From the sequence record NC_054925.1: DNA of 64,000 nt; one strand, given 5' to 3'. The notes below the pieces were generated by a model, which was not told the origin of the DNA, did no database searches, and was given only the letters and a program-made list of their open reading frames with translations. Each line of letters opens with the position of its first letter. Positions within the stretch are counted from its first letter, which is position 1. Shown here one piece after another: positions 3,988 through 63,821 of the stretch. The translations under genes and the position numbers were made by a program. The stretch is from Escherichia phage vB_EcoM_NBG2.

Positions 3988-4173
3988 CTATTCACCTTTA
4001 GAAATTTTATCCATAACGATAGCAATTAAACCAATTAAAAATGCTACTACAAGTGAAAACACATTTTCTGCTGTAGTCAATAATCCGCATATAAATCCAA
4101 CAAACATTGAAAAACTAAAAGCAGAAGCAGAAATTGCAATAGCAACATTTCGAATTAATTCACAACGTTTCAT
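3988..4173 (-). CDS. small predicted membrane protein, 61 aa, two hydrophobic helices
   Basis: GAGGAG RBS; segments AIAISASAFSFSMFVGFICGLL and VFSLVVAFLIGLIAIV; early-type promoter upstream. Confidence 0.5.
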   Translation of the reverse strand: MKRCELIRNVAIAISASAFSFSMFVGFICGLLTTAENVFSLVVAFLIGLIAIVMDKISKGE

Positions 4174-4201
4174 TTTATTCTCCTCGGTAGTTGATAGGGT
4201 A

Positions 4202-57708: not shown

Positions 57709-57896
57709 TAATAATCTAGTGGTAAGAGAGTACGATATATTTCAAACTTTGGACCTTTTTCGTAGGCATCAAATGTTTCTGTAAATTTATTATAAGCATA
57801 TGCATCTACAAATTCGAGAATGACTTGTGATACCGAAGTAGAAACATCTCCACCTTCTTTTTGAGCAACGACAATTGTTTCTAAGTAAGCTTTCAT
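57708..57896 (-). CDS. hypothetical protein, 62 aa
   Basis: Complete ORF overlapping the ligase stop. Confidence 0.45.
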   Translation of the reverse strand: MKAYLETIVVAQKEGGDVSTSVSQVILEFVDAYAYNKFTETFDAYEKGPKFEIYRTLLPLDY

Positions 57897-59353
57897 AAAC
57901 CAGTTACCTCATGAAAATCACCAAATACATCCTCGAATGTATTAGCTTTAGTTTTATCTTCACGTAAACGAATCGCAATTGGAAGAAATAATTTAACGTA
58001 ATCAGTGCGACCATCAGATTTTAACCAACCATTGCATTCGCACTCTAGAATTTTTCCAATATAATAATTTTGGTTTTCCATAATGCGAGTACGGTCAAGT
58101 TCATGTGATTTTACACCGGCTTTATCTTTTAAGCCTGAACCAGCATTTACTTTAATTTTTCCACACTCTGATTCAAGAATAAATCCACCCGCTTTAGTAG
58201 GGTCTTTACGGTGAGGATAAATTCCTACAATTTTTAAATCAACATCAATTACTTCTTTAAATTTATAGAGATTTTTTGAACGAGCATTTTCCCACAATCC
58301 ATCGGTATTTTTGAGAATAATACCTTCAAGACCTTGGTCAATATATTTTTTATAAATTACCTTAGCTTCATCTAGGTTATTTACTACTTGGTTTTCAATT
58401 AAAATTACTTTATCATATCCTGATGTCATTTGTTCTAGTTTAGAAAAACGTACATCATATTTTAAACGAAACGCCGGAAGACCGTATATTTCTACCAACG
58501 GAACATAATCCCAGACCTGAAACTTCATACATTGGGCTTCTTTTTCTGAAATAGTTCCCTTTAAAGATTTATTAGCGATTCCATTAGAAGCAGTACGAGA
58601 TTCAGCTACTTCTGTGAAGTCTTTAGCTTTGCTAATTTCAGGAGTGTCAAAAAGAAAATCTAGGCCTTCTGGTTCCTTTTTAACTTGCTCATGGTATACC
58701 AATTCGCCATCAATTAACACACCTTCTGGATGAATCTGGCGGGCTTCAGCGGTCATTTTGATTAACTCTTCCTTAAGAAGATCTAATCCTAGATATTCAT
58801 TACCAGCTCGTGATAAAAGACGAACATCATCTAATTCATCTCCTCTGACTTCAGCAAAACACCGGGCTCCATCTGCTTTTAACTGCGCAAAAGCTGGAAA
58901 TTTGATATTCTTACTAATGCCTTTTTCATCATAAGAACTTGCAAGCATTTGAGGTTGTTCAGGAATTAAACCTGGCCAAACTTTGTTTGCAATAGATACT
59001 GAAGCACCGCATTCAAGGTCTCGCATCATAACTCGGCGCAAAACTTCAACATCATCCTTTTTACCATCGGTGATATATCCAGTTAATTCCTCAATTGCTG
59101 CATTTCCAGTCAATTTCCGAGTAGCTAACGTAAATTCAATAAAGTCAAGCATATCGGTAATGGTCAGCATTCCAAAACTCTGGGTAGCAATACCAGGCTT
59201 AGGCCATTTCTTGATATAATACTGTAACCCACGAGAATAAGTCAGACGATATACTCGTTTAAGCAATTCATTATCTTTATTCTTTTCAAGAATTGCTTGC
59301 TTCTGCTTAGTTGATCCAATAGATGCTATTTCATTCAGAATTTTAAGAATCAT
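57893..59353 (-). CDS. 30: ATP-dependent DNA ligase, 486 aa
   Basis: Adenylation motif I KADGARC; size and position match T4 gp30. Confidence 0.9.
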   Translation of the reverse strand: MILKILNEIASIGSTKQKQAILEKNKDNELLKRVYRLTYSRGLQYYIKKWPKPGIATQSFGMLTITDMLDFIEFTLATRKLTGNAAIEELTGYITDGKKDDVEVLRRVMMRDLECGASVSIANKVWPGLIPEQPQMLASSYDEKGISKNIKFPAFAQLKADGARCFAEVRGDELDDVRLLSRAGNEYLGLDLLKEELIKMTAEARQIHPEGVLIDGELVYHEQVKKEPEGLDFLFDTPEISKAKDFTEVAESRTASNGIANKSLKGTISEKEAQCMKFQVWDYVPLVEIYGLPAFRLKYDVRFSKLEQMTSGYDKVILIENQVVNNLDEAKVIYKKYIDQGLEGIILKNTDGLWENARSKNLYKFKEVIDVDLKIVGIYPHRKDPTKAGGFILESECGKIKVNAGSGLKDKAGVKSHELDRTRIMENQNYYIGKILECECNGWLKSDGRTDYVKLFLPIAIRLREDKTKANTFEDVFGDFHEVTGL

Positions 59354-59619
59354 TGTTCATCCTTCAGAGTTTGATTTACATCTCTATTATAAATCAATTC
59401 ATCATTAAGCTCAGGCAAAGACTTATGATATGTAGTTCTAACTTTATTTCCTTGCATCCAGTGCTTGACGTAAATGAAACCTTGCTCTACACATTTTTTA
59501 AAAATTCGTTCGTCTTTTTGAGCACGGAATTCTGGATTGCATCTAAAAAATTGATTTACGTGACCGTAATCACGTGTAGTATTACCTTCATTTTCATAAA
59601 TAGTATGAACAACAAACAT
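59350..59619 (-). CDS. hypothetical protein, 89 aa
   Basis: Complete ORF, translationally coupled to neighbours. Confidence 0.5.
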   Translation of the reverse strand: MFVVHTIYENEGNTTRDYGHVNQFFRCNPEFRAQKDERIFKKCVEQGFIYVKHWMQGNKVRTTYHKSLPELNDELIYNRDVNQTLKDEQ

Positions 59620-60464
59620 TAGAATGCTCCTTGAAAAATATTATCACCACTAGTAGGTCTATTATACAAATACTCTATGCCACCAGGTTTAATATAGTTC
59701 CATGTCTGAAACGGATATGTCTGATATGGATAATATGGATGATATAGATTATAAGGATTAAATCCAGGCGTTCTCCAGGTAGTGTTCCAAGGAAAAGAAT
59801 CGTTTTTAACCATCTTCTCAATTACATCTTTTATAGCTTTTTCACTATCAAAATTTTCTTTATTTTCCTTCGGTGAAAAAAGCTTATTTTCTACATCATT
59901 CCATGTATAAACTCGCTGAGCAGTTTTTGGAATATTGTCACGTTCTCCTCGAGCCATCCAATAAACCGGAACATTTAATATTTCACTCGCGTGGTCGCAG
60001 TGGTGAGCGAGATCGTCAATATAACAAATTACGTTATATTTCTCTTTTGCCTTTTTAAACAACTCTTCTTTTGAAGAATCATGACCACACATCATTACTT
60101 CTGAGAAGGCACCAGGAAAAAGAGCATTCAAATTAAATTGACGATTTAATAGAGCATCAATAGAATCACCCAATGCTGTAACAGCTACAAAATTATAATC
60201 TTCTTTTAATTTGTTAATTACACACAGGGCATCTTTATACGGAGACAAGTAACGAATAAAATCTGAACGATTGTATTTTTCAATTAACTTGACGCCAAGT
60301 TCTTCGTCACAATTAAAGAGTTTACCTGGAGAAATAAATTTCTCATCTTGGATCATTTTTAAAATATGTTCTAATGGAAGATTATATTTCTGAGCAAAAT
60401 AAGGAAGGCCTGATTGCCAGCTTAAACATACTCCATCAATATCAGTCAAAATAGTTGGCTTCAT
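59619..60464 (-). CDS. HAD-superfamily hydrolase-like protein, 281 aa
   Basis: N-terminal DIDGV motif I; later S/T and K...DD motifs. Confidence 0.55.
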   Translation of the reverse strand: MKPTILTDIDGVCLSWQSGLPYFAQKYNLPLEHILKMIQDEKFISPGKLFNCDEELGVKLIEKYNRSDFIRYLSPYKDALCVINKLKEDYNFVAVTALGDSIDALLNRQFNLNALFPGAFSEVMMCGHDSSKEELFKKAKEKYNVICYIDDLAHHCDHASEILNVPVYWMARGERDNIPKTAQRVYTWNDVENKLFSPKENKENFDSEKAIKDVIEKMVKNDSFPWNTTWRTPGFNPYNLYHPYYPYQTYPFQTWNYIKPGGIEYLYNRPTSGDNIFQGAF

Positions 60465-60925
60465 AGAGAGTCTCTTAATAGGTTTAACACATCAATAAAT
60501 TCAGCTTCGGTTAGTATTGTATCATCTTTTGTTAGACCACTAGCCATGCTGTGCTTCAAAACTTTTCCTTTCGAGGCTTGTAATGCATCACGAAAGCCCC
60601 TGTTTTGGATCGCTGCTTCAAAATATGCATTTGTGTATAATTCTTTCCATGCTTCGGAATATCTTGAAAACGGAGTTCCAAGCCAGAACAACGTGCCACG
60701 GTCCTGAGCTCTTGCATAAGCTCGTCCAGCTTTTTGCGCATCCAACCCGGACATCCCAAATATGCGTCTTTGCTGTTCAACATTTTTCACCTTACACCCT
60801 TGGAGGAATCCTTCGAGACCTCCAAATTGGATACCATCCATAACGAAAGGCCATTGGGCGAAATTGCTTAATGCACATGATGGCCATCTAAAATTGCTTC
60901 TTATCTCTAGCTCAGACATTTTCAA
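60461..60925 (-). CDS. NADAR / YbiA-like (DUF1768) protein, 154 aa
   Basis: Core LSNFAQWP...DG...EGFLQGCK matches the YbiA FSNFxxWP...DG...EHYFQAQK pattern as I recall it. Confidence 0.55.
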   Translation of the reverse strand: MKMSELEIRSNFRWPSCALSNFAQWPFVMDGIQFGGLEGFLQGCKVKNVEQQRRIFGMSGLDAQKAGRAYARAQDRGTLFWLGTPFSRYSEAWKELYTNAYFEAAIQNRGFRDALQASKGKVLKHSMASGLTKDDTILTEAEFIDVLNLLRDSL

Positions 60926-61118
60926 TACTTATAATTTCAACATCAGCCCAATGACCATAGCAAGGAAGACGAAATTCAACTGGCCAGTTAGGGTCCTTTT
61001 CTAATATAATAGACTTAACTTGTGGTTCTTCATGTTCATCGGTATACGGACCTTTATACGTTACTTTATATGTGACCTTAATGTACTGAATTCCAAAAAT
61101 CTTATTAATTATATTCAT
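60912..61118 (-). CDS. hypothetical protein, 68 aa
   Basis: Complete ORF in a chain of overlapping small genes. Confidence 0.4.
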   Translation of the reverse strand: MNIINKIFGIQYIKVTYKVTYKGPYTDEHEEPQVKSIILEKDPNWPVEFRLPCYGHWADVEIISIENV

Positions 61119-61312
61119 ACTAATTCCTTTAATCCATAGATAGGAGATAATTCATCACCCATACGAAGGTCTTCATTTCCATCTACCCAGGAAACAATAT
61201 AAGCCTCTTTTATTTGAACGTCTCTCCATTTAAATGCAGGCAAAACCTTAGAAATTAATCCAGGTATACCGACTCCCTTTAATTCAACAGTTTGACCCAA
61301 AAAGAATTTCAT
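61115..61312 (-). CDS. hypothetical protein, 65 aa
   Basis: Complete ORF in a chain of overlapping small genes. Confidence 0.4.
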   Translation of the reverse strand: MKFFLGQTVELKGVGIPGLISKVLPAFKWRDVQIKEAYIVSWVDGNEDLRMGDELSPIYGLKELV

Positions 61313-61599
61313 TAGAACCTCATCTGAAATCCGTGCGATTTAACATTACCACCACCAATGTCAGAAATATTAATTTCACTCGCAATTGAAGGGTCAATGT
61401 CAATTTCACGATTGAGTTTAATGATTGCTAGAGTATCACGTCCATTTACAGTACGGAACTCTAAAGGACATACTACATTAACGTAGTTTTTAATCGATTC
61501 ACTGGTAGGCTGCAAATGAGCAGGAAGGTCTTTAGGCGCCTTAGAGAAAACCACTTCACAGAAATTTTTGCGGGTATCAAAATAAGTAGTCATAAACAT
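61312..61599 (-). CDS. hypothetical protein, 95 aa (start moved to internal Met)
   Basis: Track ORF 61312..61650 runs through a stem-loop; ATG at 61599 has a GAGGAAA RBS. Confidence 0.45.
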   Translation of the reverse strand: MFMTTYFDTRKNFCEVVFSKAPKDLPAHLQPTSESIKNYVNVVCPLEFRTVNGRDTLAIIKLNREIDIDPSIASEINISDIGGGNVKSHGFQMRF

Positions 61600-61616
61600 A
61601 GTATTTTCCTCAGTAA

Positions 61617-61630
61617 GGGGCCGAAGCCCC
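61617..61630 (-). terminator. stem-loop GGGGC-UUCG-GCCCC on minus transcript after the 61640..62017 gene
   Basis: Same hairpin sequence as at 114 and 40191. Confidence 0.4.
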
Positions 61631-61639
61631 TGTTTTATT

Positions 61640-62017
61640 TTAAATATCAAATTCGTTAAGAACTACATCAAAGATTGCTTCAAGATGCTCAGGTTTAGCT
61701 CTGTTACTCAGAATATGACGAATCCAAGTTTTAACCAGAAGCTTACGATTGACGCCATTCCAACAAGGATGAGTCCCTAAATCACGTTGACGAAAATCAT
61801 CATCCAGAGCGATTTTAAAAGAAGAACCTTCTTTCGTGATTGAAACCGTAATGCCATTTTCAAATCGCATATAAACGTAGTTAGGAGTCATATACTGTTC
61901 AATTTCGCATACTGATCCATTTTGATGTTTCCAAAGGCAAATAGTATCAATAGAACCTGCAATACCGTTAGAAACATATTTACGTTCAAAGTTAATGTAG
62001 TTCATTTTATTCTCCAA
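61640..62017 (-). CDS. hypothetical protein, 125 aa
   Basis: Complete ORF. Confidence 0.5.
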   Translation of the reverse strand: MENKMNYINFERKYVSNGIAGSIDTICLWKHQNGSVCEIEQYMTPNYVYMRFENGITVSITKEGSSFKIALDDDFRQRDLGTHPCWNGVNRKLLVKTWIRHILSNRAKPEHLEAIFDVVLNEFDI

Positions 62018-62072
62018 GATGTTTAATTGCGGTACAGGTATATAATATCATATCCTGTACCAAAGTAAACAA

Positions 62073-62405
62073 TTATTTTACTAATTTCCAATGCTTCATG
62101 TCAAGTTTGCCAACTTTTTTCATCTTCTCAATTAAGCGTTCGGCACGCTGGCGAGCTGTAACATAATACCATTCACCCAATTCATTTTGTTCAATTTTTC
62201 CAACGATTACTGTATTCAATTCATAAATCCAACCAGTAAAGAAATTATGAACTTGAATTGTAAAGGTGAAATCTGTTCCCATACCTTCTGTTGTTTCTAC
62301 TTCAACAATATCACCTTCAACTGCCATTAAGAACCACATAGTTTCATCATATTTACCATTGAAGCATTTAGTTTTAACTGCAGCGTTCAGATTAATCGTT
62401 TTCAT
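62073..62405 (-). CDS. hypothetical protein, 110 aa
   Basis: AAGGAG RBS; early-type promoter upstream. Confidence 0.5.
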   Translation of the reverse strand: MKTINLNAAVKTKCFNGKYDETMWFLMAVEGDIVEVETTEGMGTDFTFTIQVHNFFTGWIYELNTVIVGKIEQNELGEWYYVTARQRAERLIEKMKKVGKLDMKHWKLVK

Positions 62406-62432
62406 TTTATTCTCCTTTGTTTGTGTAAGATA

Positions 62433-62462
62433 ATACTATCACAAAGGAACCATACTGTAAAC
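62433..62462 (-). promoter_or_regulatory. T4 early-type promoter (GTTTAC-N18-TAGTAT) on minus strand
   Basis: Plus strand gtaaac 62457-62462 within the recurring tgtaaacaactttgtg cassette. Confidence 0.4.
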
Positions 62463-62483
62463 AACTTTGTGCAATCTTTGGAA

Positions 62484-62510
62484 AATAAAAAAGGACTCCC
62501 GAAGGAGTCC
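62484..62510 (-). terminator. intrinsic terminator (GGACUCC-UUCG-GGAGUCC plus U6) on minus strand
   Basis: 7-bp stem with UUCG loop followed by a run of T on the minus strand. Confidence 0.65.
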
Positions 62511-62515
62511 TCAAC

Positions 62516-62692
62516 TTATGCTTTCTGCTTACCAAAACGAGAAGCATCATCTCGAAGAACCGCACGTGCTCGGCGCATGATCTTCTCAACAGTTTGATTG
62601 ATACGAGAGTTCGACCCACGCTTGTAACCAGCGCGTTTAGAATCACCAACTTTCTTTTCAACTGCTTTCTTTGCTTTAGCTTGTTTTGCCAT
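62516..62692 (-). CDS. small basic protein, 58 aa (start moved to internal Met)
   Basis: Lys/Arg-rich MAKQAKAKKAVEKK...; ATG at 62692. Confidence 0.4.
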   Translation of the reverse strand: MAKQAKAKKAVEKKVGDSKRAGYKRGSNSRINQTVEKIMRRARAVLRDDASRFGKQKA

Positions 62693-63089
62693 TATAAATT
62701 CTCTTTTAAATGAAAATGCAGGACTTATTGGCATTGCCTGCGCAAGCCCTCAAGGGGAACATAGGTTTTGTATATTTACCGACAGGATAACCATAAACCT
62801 CGTCAACATACCTTATAGCTCTTATCTGTTGCACACCGTTAGCTTAAAGGTTCCGGGTTCGATTTCTCGAGGATAAGATATATACTGATGGATATATAGG
62901 CCTTGAGGCGTACTCCCGATTGGCCATCACCTCGGGGTAGCATGCACTTGCCGCTATAAGAATAACATTCAAGAGGTACACCATAAAACTGCCGGGGTCT
63001 TAAAACTATAATGATTCGCAAATCATTAATCAGACAGTTCGATGGCTCCTCGATTTTAGCTCACACTAAGGCAGTGAATCTCCAATAAA

Positions 63090-63338
63090 TTACTTCAGTG
63101 TTACCACAAAGTGACGAACTGCTTTTCGTGCGGCAGAAGCCAGAGGCTTAGCATATTTAAGTTCATCTTTTTCCTGGAGCTCAGCAGCTAATGCAGTTTG
63201 AGCAGGATTCAGATGTTTGAAATAACGCAGGATTTCAAGAGCTTCGGCTTCAACATCAATAGATGCGCCATAGTTTTCGTGACCATTATTCCATGCGTTT
63301 CGTTGCAGTTCAAGAGCGTGTTGTAATTGTTTAATCAT
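63090..63338 (-). CDS. rIII: lysis inhibition accessory protein rIII, 82 aa
   Basis: Size and position beside gene 31 as in T4. Confidence 0.7.
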   Translation of the reverse strand: MIKQLQHALELQRNAWNNGHENYGASIDVEAEALEILRYFKHLNPAQTALAAELQEKDELKYAKPLASAARKAVRHFVVTLK

Positions 63339-63485
63339 TTAAAAATTCTCGTTAGAGATTAAAACTCGGTAGTCACGTTCTTCTGAATTTCATCTTCTTT
63401 CGACAGATCTCTCAGTTGTAGACTACCACGTAGAATTGTTCGGTTAACTTATTATTCCGACACCCAATTCATATTATTATTTATA

Positions 63486-63821
63486 TCACTTATAAAGACA
63501 CGGAATAGCTTTATAATGACATGTTACGAATTTTTGTTTAATTTCTTTTGGCTGCTTAAGACCCAGAGCTACAAAAGGATGCGGAACGTTTCGAATTTGA
63601 CCAACTGGAAGAGAAGTCAAATCACCAACTTCGCAGAAACCTTCAGGAACATCAGGACCAACAGAGTGAACTACACACAGTTCAGGAACTTCACCTTGAA
63701 CACGTTTACCGATAATAAGTCCTGATTCTGTAACTTCTTCATCACCGGCTTGCGCAGGTTCAGAAACTAAAATAACATATTCACCGACAGCACGAATTGG
63801 TAGCTGTTGTACTTCAGACAT
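63486..63821 (-). CDS. 31: GroES-like co-chaperonin for capsid protein folding, 111 aa
   Basis: Recognised by sequence and length. Confidence 0.85.

Follow-up and report, generated by a model that had tools for sequence, protein, structure and literature searches.

What do the small early genes between gene 30 and rIII of a T4-like phage encode, and why are they kept? The question is raised here by 64,000 nucleotides of Escherichia phage vB_EcoM_NBG2 (NC_054925.1), the whole stretch of DNA that was analysed (hereafter the window). An earlier note, made from the sequence alone, had described a chain of five overlapping small ORFs at 60912-62405, had recognised none of them and had proposed them as candidate host-modulation factors.

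Identity and layout of the five genes

The source phage is a Tequatrovirus whose DNA is 98% identical to that of its closest relative, phage DalCa, and all five proteins are 100% identical to those of DalCa. ORF analysis bore out five coding ORFs on the minus strand inside 60912-62405. Far from being unrecognisable, all five are named T4 genes: they are orthologues of 30.4, 30.5, 30.6, 30.7 and 30.8, with 94-97% amino-acid identity. A synteny comparison gave the order 30.8-30.7-30.6-30.5-30.4, the same as in T4. The earlier note had correctly placed the ORFs in a T4-like phage, between gene 30 and rIII. The genes are as follows, with 30.3 as context.

62073 to 62405, minus strand: 30.8 orthologue, 110 amino acids, the first cistron past the early promoter
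61640 to 62005, minus strand: 30.7 orthologue, 121 amino acids, starting at ATG 62005 and not at TTG 62017
61312 to 61599, minus strand: 30.6 orthologue, 95 amino acids, starting at ATG 61599 and not at TTG 61650
61115 to 61312, minus strand: 30.5 orthologue, 65 amino acids (phrog_1690, T4 gp30.5)
60912 to 61118, minus strand: 30.4 orthologue, 68 amino acids (phrog_2042, T4 gp30.4)
60461 to 60919, minus strand: 30.3, given for context and outside the five; it encodes AdfN, an anti-DarTG1 enzyme of the NADAR type (PF08010)

The 30.8 protein matches Pfam Phage_30_8 (PF06019) over residues 1-110 with 196.5 bits (cutoff 25), and phrog_1507 with an E-value of 2.4e-50. For 30.7, the matches are to Phage_T4_Gp30_7 (PF06919; 173.7 bits, cutoff 27, residues 1-120 of 121) and phrog_1582 (E 1.5e-64). 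The families of 30.6 (phrog_2153, E 4e-50; 96% identical to T4 gp30.6), 30.5 (E 2e-33; 94% identity, 61 of 65 residues) and 30.4 (E 5e-34; 94% identity) were identified by full-length HMM matches together with their conserved place between 30.7 and 30.3, and 30.3 itself matches PF08010 with 228.6 bits and is ~94% identical to T4 gp30.3. The T4 genes (NP_049818-NP_049822) share order, orientation, neighbours and lengths with those of the window, as well as both promoters, the terminator, the hairpins and the GGAG-containing ribosome-binding sites described below; they differ by a few substitutions per protein, 30.5 varying at residues 27 and 30-32. The five ORFs are long-annotated T4-like early genes, already known, and represent no discovery.

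The layout differs in part from the one first described. Conserved ATG starts preceded by Shine-Dalgarno sequences make 30.6 a protein of 95 amino acids, not 112, and 30.7 one of 121, not 125. Of the size range given earlier, 65-125 amino acids, the lower end holds but the upper end does not, because two of the ORFs had been extended to upstream TTG codons; the real range is 65-121. Likewise, the overlapping chain comprises 30.6, 30.5 and 30.4, continuing into the downstream 30.3 (overlaps of 1 nt for 30.6/30.5, 4 nt for 30.5/30.4 and 8 nt for 30.4/30.3), whereas 30.8 and 30.7 are separate cistrons, with gaps of 67 nt between 30.8 and 30.7 and 40 nt between 30.7 and 30.6. Past the conserved hairpin that follows 30.7, the genes 30.6, 30.5, 30.4 and 30.3 would be read as one run of overlapping stop and start codons, an arrangement that suggests translational coupling.

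Transcription signals, hairpins and putative RegB sites

The window carries the following signals around and within the block.

62482 to 62512, minus strand: Rho-independent terminator closing the upstream 30.9 unit and bounding the block, a UUCG hairpin (62491-62512) followed by a T-run
62433 to 62462, minus strand: early-type sigma-70 promoter before 30.8, TTTACA-17-TAGTAT with an upstream TG
62412 to 62415, minus strand: GGAG in the 30.8 Shine-Dalgarno sequence, of the type that RegB targets, in the 13-mer GGAGAATAAAATG at 62403-62415
62042 to 62069, minus strand: second early-type promoter, before 30.7, TTTACT-16-TATTAT with an upstream TG
62031 to 62061, minus strand: hairpin GGUACAGG...CCUGUACC between 30.8 and 30.7, part of which coincides with the -10 element of the 30.7 promoter
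62012 to 62015, minus strand: GGAG in the 30.7 Shine-Dalgarno sequence, likewise of the RegB-target type, within a second copy of the 13-mer at 62003-62015
61616 to 61631, minus strand: UUCG-loop hairpin between 30.7 and 30.6, directly upstream of an invariant UGAGGAA ribosome-binding site

The early-type promoter before 30.8 had been noted previously and was found again in a consensus scan; T4 and fHoEco02 have almost the same sequence there. The same kind of scan gave the second promoter, in which an alignment of the window with T4, JS98 and fHoEco02 shows no variation of the GTTTAC and TATTATA elements. Transcription would thus be driven by two host sigma-70 early promoters, and on these motifs 30.8 and 30.7 are predicted to belong to the T4 early (prereplicative) class.

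UUCG stem-loops had been placed between some of the ORFs. One such hairpin lies there, between 30.7 and 30.6; the second belongs to the terminator, on the upstream side of the 30.8 promoter. The 30.7/30.6 hairpin has a folding energy of -11.8 kcal/mol and compensatory changes at three of its six pairs among eight phages of five genera; the coding strand has no T-tract after it, and its loop is UUCG in this phage versus UUCA in T4. In the terminator, which was returned by a terminator scan, a 9-pair stem is followed by TTTTATTTT; its folding energy is -16.4 kcal/mol (z-score -4.6), and the DalCa annotation has a terminator at the equivalent position. This element bounds the block at its upstream edge. 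The hairpin in the 30.8-30.7 spacer has no UUCG loop, a folding energy of -20.1 kcal/mol (z-score -5.3) and two arms that are invariant across the four aligned phages. An Rfam search returned only chance sub-threshold matches to hairpins, and no tRNAs.

The ribosome-binding sites of 30.8 and 30.7 are identical over the exact 13-mer given above. In T4 early mRNAs, RegB, stimulated by ribosomal protein S1, cuts at GGAG within Shine-Dalgarno sequences, and its cleavage of the T4 30.7 transcript at GGAG has been mapped by primer extension (PMC9409239). Both 30.8 and 30.7 carry GGAG in the Shine-Dalgarno sequence of a predicted early mRNA and are thus putative RegB targets, and cleavage at these sites probably shuts off the two mRNAs.

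Constraint, expression and distribution

Homologues of the five genes occur in 709-1041 phage records, and all five are under purifying selection, with dN/dS of 0.02-0.28 (0.02-0.09 for 30.6 and about 0.28 for 30.4). For T4, the class 'early-RNA_early-Protein' is assigned to each of the five (PMC9697503 supplement). They tolerate transposon insertions there (saturation 0.95-1.0, class 'Non-essential'), and in CRISPRi-ART of T4 the genes 30.4, 30.5, 30.7 and 30.8 are scored 'Not Fit' and 30.6 'Semi-Fit'; for the downstream genes the scores are 'Semi-Fit' for 30.1 and 'Not Fit' for 30.3 and 30.2. The five ORFs are real accessory genes and, going by the expression and fitness data of T4, dispensable ones. 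Their families are conserved in relatives (Pfam and PHROG).

The earlier note also described the interval aptly, as variable and made up of small early genes. The block is mosaic across Tevenvirinae, its genes being gained, lost or replaced independently while the ligase is retained. Thus, 30.7 is present without 30.8 in STP4-a and KP179; 30.8 stands alone in a phi92-like phage, as a terminator-flanked cassette, and 30.7 alone in a Vequintavirinae phage; the Tequatrovirus pSs-1 lacks 30.5, the 30.4 of phage fHoEco02 has a frameshift, and a Mosigvirus carries a replacement for 30.6. The narrowest distribution among the five is that of 30.4, and 30.8 has two alleles that are only about 40% identical inside one genus. 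An obligate complex of the five products was rejected, because the genes come and go independently.

Functions of the products

Searches of Pfam, PHROGs, NCBIfam and PADLOC with the five proteins gave only families that bear the names of these genes or lack a known function; the PADLOC defence-system and NCBIfam HMMs had no match at E<=1, and sequence and profile searches of the PDB with the five ORFs and 30.3 returned nothing below E of about 0.1. Sequence searches with 30.4 found phage relatives only. An exhaustive phmmer search with 30.6 found its own family, besides matches to cadherin, TPR and an unnamed repeat protein, which we rejected as spurious because their scores add up weak repeats. 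For 30.8, a single-sequence search found 6 proteins, and a search with an alignment of divergent phage homologues found 110; the corresponding alignment for 30.7 found 74. All of these homologues are phage-borne and carry only their own Pfam domain. The AlphaFold models of 30.7 and 30.8, built from diverse alignments, are compact (pLDDT 91-96), and fold searches with them gave no characterised fold, no enzyme-like relative and no match to DNA-mimic anti-restriction proteins; in the BFVD viral library the 30.8 model found its own family only. Invariant His27, Asp69 and His79, together with a conserved RDLxxHP loop, in 30.7 could just as well belong to a small enzyme or mark a metal site. A DNA-mimic role of the Ocr or Arn type was also considered, and was rejected because the proteins lack strong acidity (pI 5.2-6.7, net charge -0.3 to -3.3).

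Only 30.5 among the five has a published activity, in T4. The T4 protein co-immunoprecipitates with host polyphosphate kinase (Ppk) and activates bNACHT11 (bioRxiv 10.1101/2024.12.17.629029, preprint), a bacterial NLR-type immune sensor. The 30.5 of this phage is identical to the T4 protein at 61 of 65 residues; binding to Ppk and to the SNaCT domain of the sensor is known for the T4 protein only. Literature searches by gp-type names and accessions found the bNACHT11 paper alone, and searches by plain-number names and Pfam and PHROG identifiers found nothing. The neighbouring gp30.3 is AdfN, a proven anti-DarTG1 enzyme (PMC11257639; HIDEN-SEQ preprint). AdfN resembles the five in belonging to the same transcription and translation run, with its 8-nt overlap with 30.4, and in being early and non-essential on K-12; it differs in having an enzymatic activity and a recognisable NADAR fold, whereas the five ORFs match neither NADAR nor any other enzyme family. 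A further point of comparison is T4 55.2, which is described as a topoisomerase I inhibitor (PMC4396842): a small, early, dispensable binder of a host enzyme that gives a modest fitness gain. T4 ORFan early proteins of this type are, like the five, small, early and dispensable, but the two sets show no sequence relationship, and among the five a target is published for 30.5 alone.

Taken together, these observations point, with some reserve, to a mosaic set of independent, conditionally useful host-protein binders as the most likely explanation. The block would consist of small, soluble, non-essential prereplicative genes, 30.8 to 30.4, and each product would act singly, binding and modulating one host protein in a way that is useful on some hosts or under some conditions. 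The worked example would be 30.5, whose T4 version binds polyphosphate kinase and is sensed in turn by bNACHT11. The host-modulation role proposed earlier thus gains substance for 30.5; for 30.4, 30.6, 30.7 and 30.8, where sequence searches, and fold searches with 30.7 and 30.8, gave no functional lead, we infer that they may also be host-protein binders. By analogy, the early expression, dispensability, RegB cleavage and 30.5 binding found in T4 presumably apply to this phage as well. Against this explanation, HIDEN-SEQ, which screened defence systems as well as clinical isolates, names other genes and highlights no conditional phenotype for the five in the tables covered, and the invariant residues of 30.7 fit an enzyme or metal site equally well. 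A bolder version, possible but already on the doubtful side, is that 30.7 and 30.8 are new-fold inhibitors of specific host enzymes or defences and that the 30.8-30.3 run is a compact host-interference island; 30.5/Ppk and AdfN/DarTG1 would then be merely its first two decoded members.

T4 annotation has included the five genes for decades, and about a thousand sequenced phages carry them. Their value lies in being part of what is still unexplained among the genes of T4, though they are expressed, constrained and widely conserved. The case of 30.5 indicates that such proteins can reach into host metabolism and also trigger bacterial immune receptors. Since 30.7 and 30.8 have confident models without a characterised relative, they are reasonable targets for interaction screens.

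Three other explanations were weighed against independent host-protein binders. The block might be a counter-defence island in which each small protein, like AdfN, neutralises one anti-phage system and does not act on host metabolism. The proven anti-DarTG1 activity of AdfN, whose gene overlaps 30.4, the dispensability of the five on E. coli K-12, and the high turnover between phages together with the two divergent 30.8 alleles, a pattern typical of arms-race genes, all speak for it. Against it, Ppk, the one partner identified among the five, is a metabolic kinase and not a defence protein; 30.5 triggers immunity instead of blocking it; the defence and clinical-isolate screens just cited named other genes; and the proteins do not have the strongly acidic composition of DNA mimics. 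We regard this explanation as unlikely.

A DNA-repair or nucleotide-metabolism module shared with AdfN, the phosphatase-like 30.2, 30.1 and the DNA ligase, with the overlaps setting the stoichiometry of a complex, is very improbable. It would account for the stop/start overlaps from 30.6 through 30.3 here, and on to gene 30 in T4, and it fits the 'Semi-Fit' scores of 30.6 and 30.1; however, each gene can be acquired, lost or exchanged by itself with the ligase kept in place, insertions are tolerated in all five whereas the ligase is essential, and knock-downs of 30.5, 30.4, 30.3 and 30.2 are 'Not Fit'. Finally, we give next to no credence to evolutionary filler, that is, ORFs with functionless products that are kept because their translation drives downstream expression: all five are dispensable in the laboratory and a functional domain was found in none, but their amino-acid sequences are under purifying selection, 30.7 and 30.8 have compact predicted folds, the proteins are detected during T4 infection, T4 30.5 specifically binds Ppk, and 30.8 and 30.7 have moved as single genes into unrelated phage families.

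Identity and coding status of the five genes

The window comes from a Tequatrovirus, a T4-like phage. Around the five open reading frames, 2.4 kb match 777 phage records, with 98.3% identity to Escherichia phage vB_EcoM_DalCa. The minus-strand order is gp31, rIII, 30.9, 30.8-30.4, 30.3, 30.2, 30.1 and DNA ligase (gene 30), exactly that of the T4 reference record. The five frames are, with essential certainty, T4 genes 30.4-30.8, and the feature is already known as these named genes. The earlier note had located the block correctly, between gene 30 and rIII, and had called none of it recognisable; all five members carry T4 names.

The five genes and the gene abutting them (identities are to T4 proteins, by global alignment)
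60912-61118, minus strand: 30.4, 68 aa, 94% identity
61115-61312, minus strand: 30.5, 65 aa, 94% identity
61312-61599, minus strand: 30.6, 95 aa, 96% identity
61640-62005, minus strand: 30.7, 121 aa, 97% identity
62073-62405, minus strand: 30.8, 110 aa, 96% identity
60461-60919, minus strand: 30.3 (AdfN), T4 30.3 orthologue, overlapping 30.4 by 8 nt

The 112- and 125-aa frames originally described run on mechanically to TTG codons further upstream; 30.6 and 30.7 have ATG as their conserved start, with GAGG or GGAG ahead, giving 95 and 121 aa. The true start of 30.3 is ATG 60919 (152 aa), TTG 60925 being a mechanical listing. With correct starts, the overlap claimed for the whole chain holds for 30.6/30.5 (1 nt), 30.5/30.4 (4 nt) and 30.4/30.3 (8 nt) and fails for 30.8 and 30.7, where gaps of 67 nt (30.8/30.7) and 40 nt (30.7/30.6) are found. 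A 75-aa ATG frame lies wholly within 30.3 in another frame (60556-60783, minus strand), where T4 has its annotated gene 30.3'.

The five are real genes rather than chance reading frames, because dN/dS is 0.02-0.28 for every one (Nei-Gojobori; against T4, JS98 and fHoEco02) and because tblastn finds homologues in 709 (30.4), 875 (30.5), 753 (30.6), 993 (30.7) and 1041 (30.8) phage records. The possibility that the frames are not conserved in any relative is thus set aside, each having homologues in more than 700 records. All five matched PHROGs of unknown function, and 30.7 and 30.8 also matched Pfam families bearing their own names, with scores far above threshold.

Promoters, hairpins and ribosome-binding sites

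Putative control elements of the block
62461-62433, minus strand: early promoter before 30.8
62069-62042, minus strand: second early promoter, before 30.7
62491-62512, minus strand: UUCG hairpin, with a T-run after it, terminating the 30.9 unit upstream

The promoter first noted before 30.8 is borne out at the sequence level, as one of two rather than as the only one. Similarly, one of the UUCG stem-loops placed between the frames does lie inside the chain (61616-61631), while the other is the putative 30.9 terminator. The 30.8/30.7 spacer forms a strong hairpin of a different type (-20.1 kcal/mol, z = -5.3), which overlaps the -10 element of the 30.7 promoter. The UUCG hairpin 3' of 30.7 is retained in eight phages of five genera, with compensatory changes in three of its six pairs, and an invariant UGAGGAA ribosome-binding site always lies just downstream, even when the next gene differs. 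Since no T-tract follows this hairpin on the coding strand, we infer that it does not end transcription and may instead act in RNA processing or stability, or as a spacer for translation.

An identical 13-mer, GGAGAATAAAATG, comprises the ribosome-binding site and start codon of both promoter-proximal genes, 30.8 and 30.7; three exact copies occur in the window, where chance would give 0.25 matches with one mismatch allowed. The third exact copy lies away from these genes (4171-4183, minus strand), and three further copies carry one mismatch. RegB, an endoribonuclease of T4, targets GGAG within Shine-Dalgarno sequences, and primer extension has shown a RegB cut at this site in the T4 30.7 early transcript (PMC9409239, citing Truncaite et al. 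2006). Promoters, hairpin arms and GGAG sites are invariant across the window, T4, JS98 and fHoEco02. Rfam holds no family for the promoters, hairpins or ribosome-binding elements of the block.

Distribution and mosaicism

The five-gene block is mosaic across phages. 30.7 and 30.5 are retained in Tequatrovirus, Dhakavirus, Karamvirus, Gelderlandvirus and Jiaodavirus; 30.4 turned up only in close T4 relatives, and is frameshifted in fHoEco02 (locus L010, 4821-5025). Shigella phage pSs-1, a Tequatrovirus (locus L012, 1113-1620), lacks 30.5, the trigger of the defence protein bNACHT11; STP4-a and KP179 lack 30.8; and Mosigvirus G2469 (locus L011, 1841-2188) carries an unrelated 115-aa gene in the 30.6 position. 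Within Tequatrovirus, 30.8 has two alleles only about 40% identical to each other, the divergent one in fHoEco02. Outside Straboviridae, 30.8 occurs alone in the phi92-like phage vB_Eco_PATM (locus L007, 2489-2872), as a stand-alone single-gene cassette flanked by two annotated terminators, and 30.7 alone in Klebsiella phage KaOmega of the Vequintavirinae (locus L008, 2501-2872). That the genes are gained, lost and transferred separately speaks for each one working alone and not as a subunit of one complex.

Identity to T4 shifts sharply along 57893-63821. The 30.9, rIII and gp31 proteins are 100% identical to T4, against 94-97% for 30.1-30.8; to DalCa, the five are 100% identical and 30.2 only 91%. 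These contrasts suggest that the window is a recombinant mosaic, joined at about 62.4-62.5 kb, close to the putative terminator and promoter.

Probable action of the products, and the flanking genes

The functional literature on the five genes comes entirely from T4. All are classed 'early-RNA_early-Protein' by time-resolved transcriptome and proteome (PMC9697503 supplement) and 'Non-essential' on E. coli K-12 by transposon-insertion sequencing, in which insertions occupy 95-100% of their TA sites and the neighbouring genes 30 and 31 score as essential (HIDEN-SEQ preprint). CRISPRi-ART scores 30.4, 30.5, 30.7 and 30.8 'Not Fit' and 30.6 'Semi-Fit' (0.72, p 0.067). HIDEN-SEQ Extended Data Table 6 gives, for its first conditional comparison, an enrichment of T4 30.8 insertions of about 9-fold (log2FC +3.22) that was not significant (p 0.19, adjusted p 1.0). 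Only 30.5 has a reported activity: its co-expression with bNACHT11, an NLR-related protein, lowers colony formation, T4 escapes bNACHT11 once 30.5 and two other triggers are deleted, and tagged 30.5 and host polyphosphate kinase (Ppk) co-immunoprecipitate reciprocally (bioRxiv 10.1101/2024.12.17.629029).

None of the five matched NCBIfam, PADLOC or, by sequence and profile search, PDB chains. When 30.6 was compared exhaustively, by HMMER, with 1.84 billion representative proteins, nothing came up beyond its own family and some repeat proteins, the latter rejected as spurious. Homologues of 30.8 (n=110) and 30.7 (n=74), collected with divergent alignments built from annotated phage loci, all lie on phage-sized contigs and carry no domain besides the family's own. 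In the 30.7 family His27, Asp69 and His79 are invariant and an R-D-L-x-x-H-P loop nearly so; these residues could form a surface for binding, or else a small site for catalysis or for a metal. Confident fold predictions that have no match make 30.7 and 30.8 sensible choices for interaction screens. The five proteins are soluble and near-neutral (pI 5.2-6.7), and therefore none looks like a DNA mimic.

We favour, with some confidence, five independent accessory early proteins, each most likely binding one host protein, as demonstrated for 30.5 (Ppk) alone; the earlier note had guessed the general class. The genes would be transcribed from the two early promoters, partially coupled in translation, and probably switched off by RegB. 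The main competing explanation, which we hold possible and clearly the less probable, is that the products serve specifically in counter-defence, as does the abutting AdfN; this NADAR ADP-ribosylglycohydrolase neutralises DarTG1, a defence system. A joint role with ligase and AdfN is improbable, given the independent turnover of the genes and the tolerated insertions. Functionless filler is more improbable still under the purifying selection observed.

Among the flanking genes, 30.2 (59619-60464, minus strand; 281 aa) has weak PHROG matches to polynucleotide kinase and phosphatase-like families (E 0.002) and no Pfam match; its length differs among phages and is shorter in JS98. 30.9 (62516-62692, minus strand) is 58 aa long and 100% identical to T4, whereas the DalCa annotation gives 72 aa from an upstream ATG (62734 in window coordinates). 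Its extremely basic composition (pI 11.4, 19 Lys+Arg) suggests that 30.9 may bind nucleic acid.
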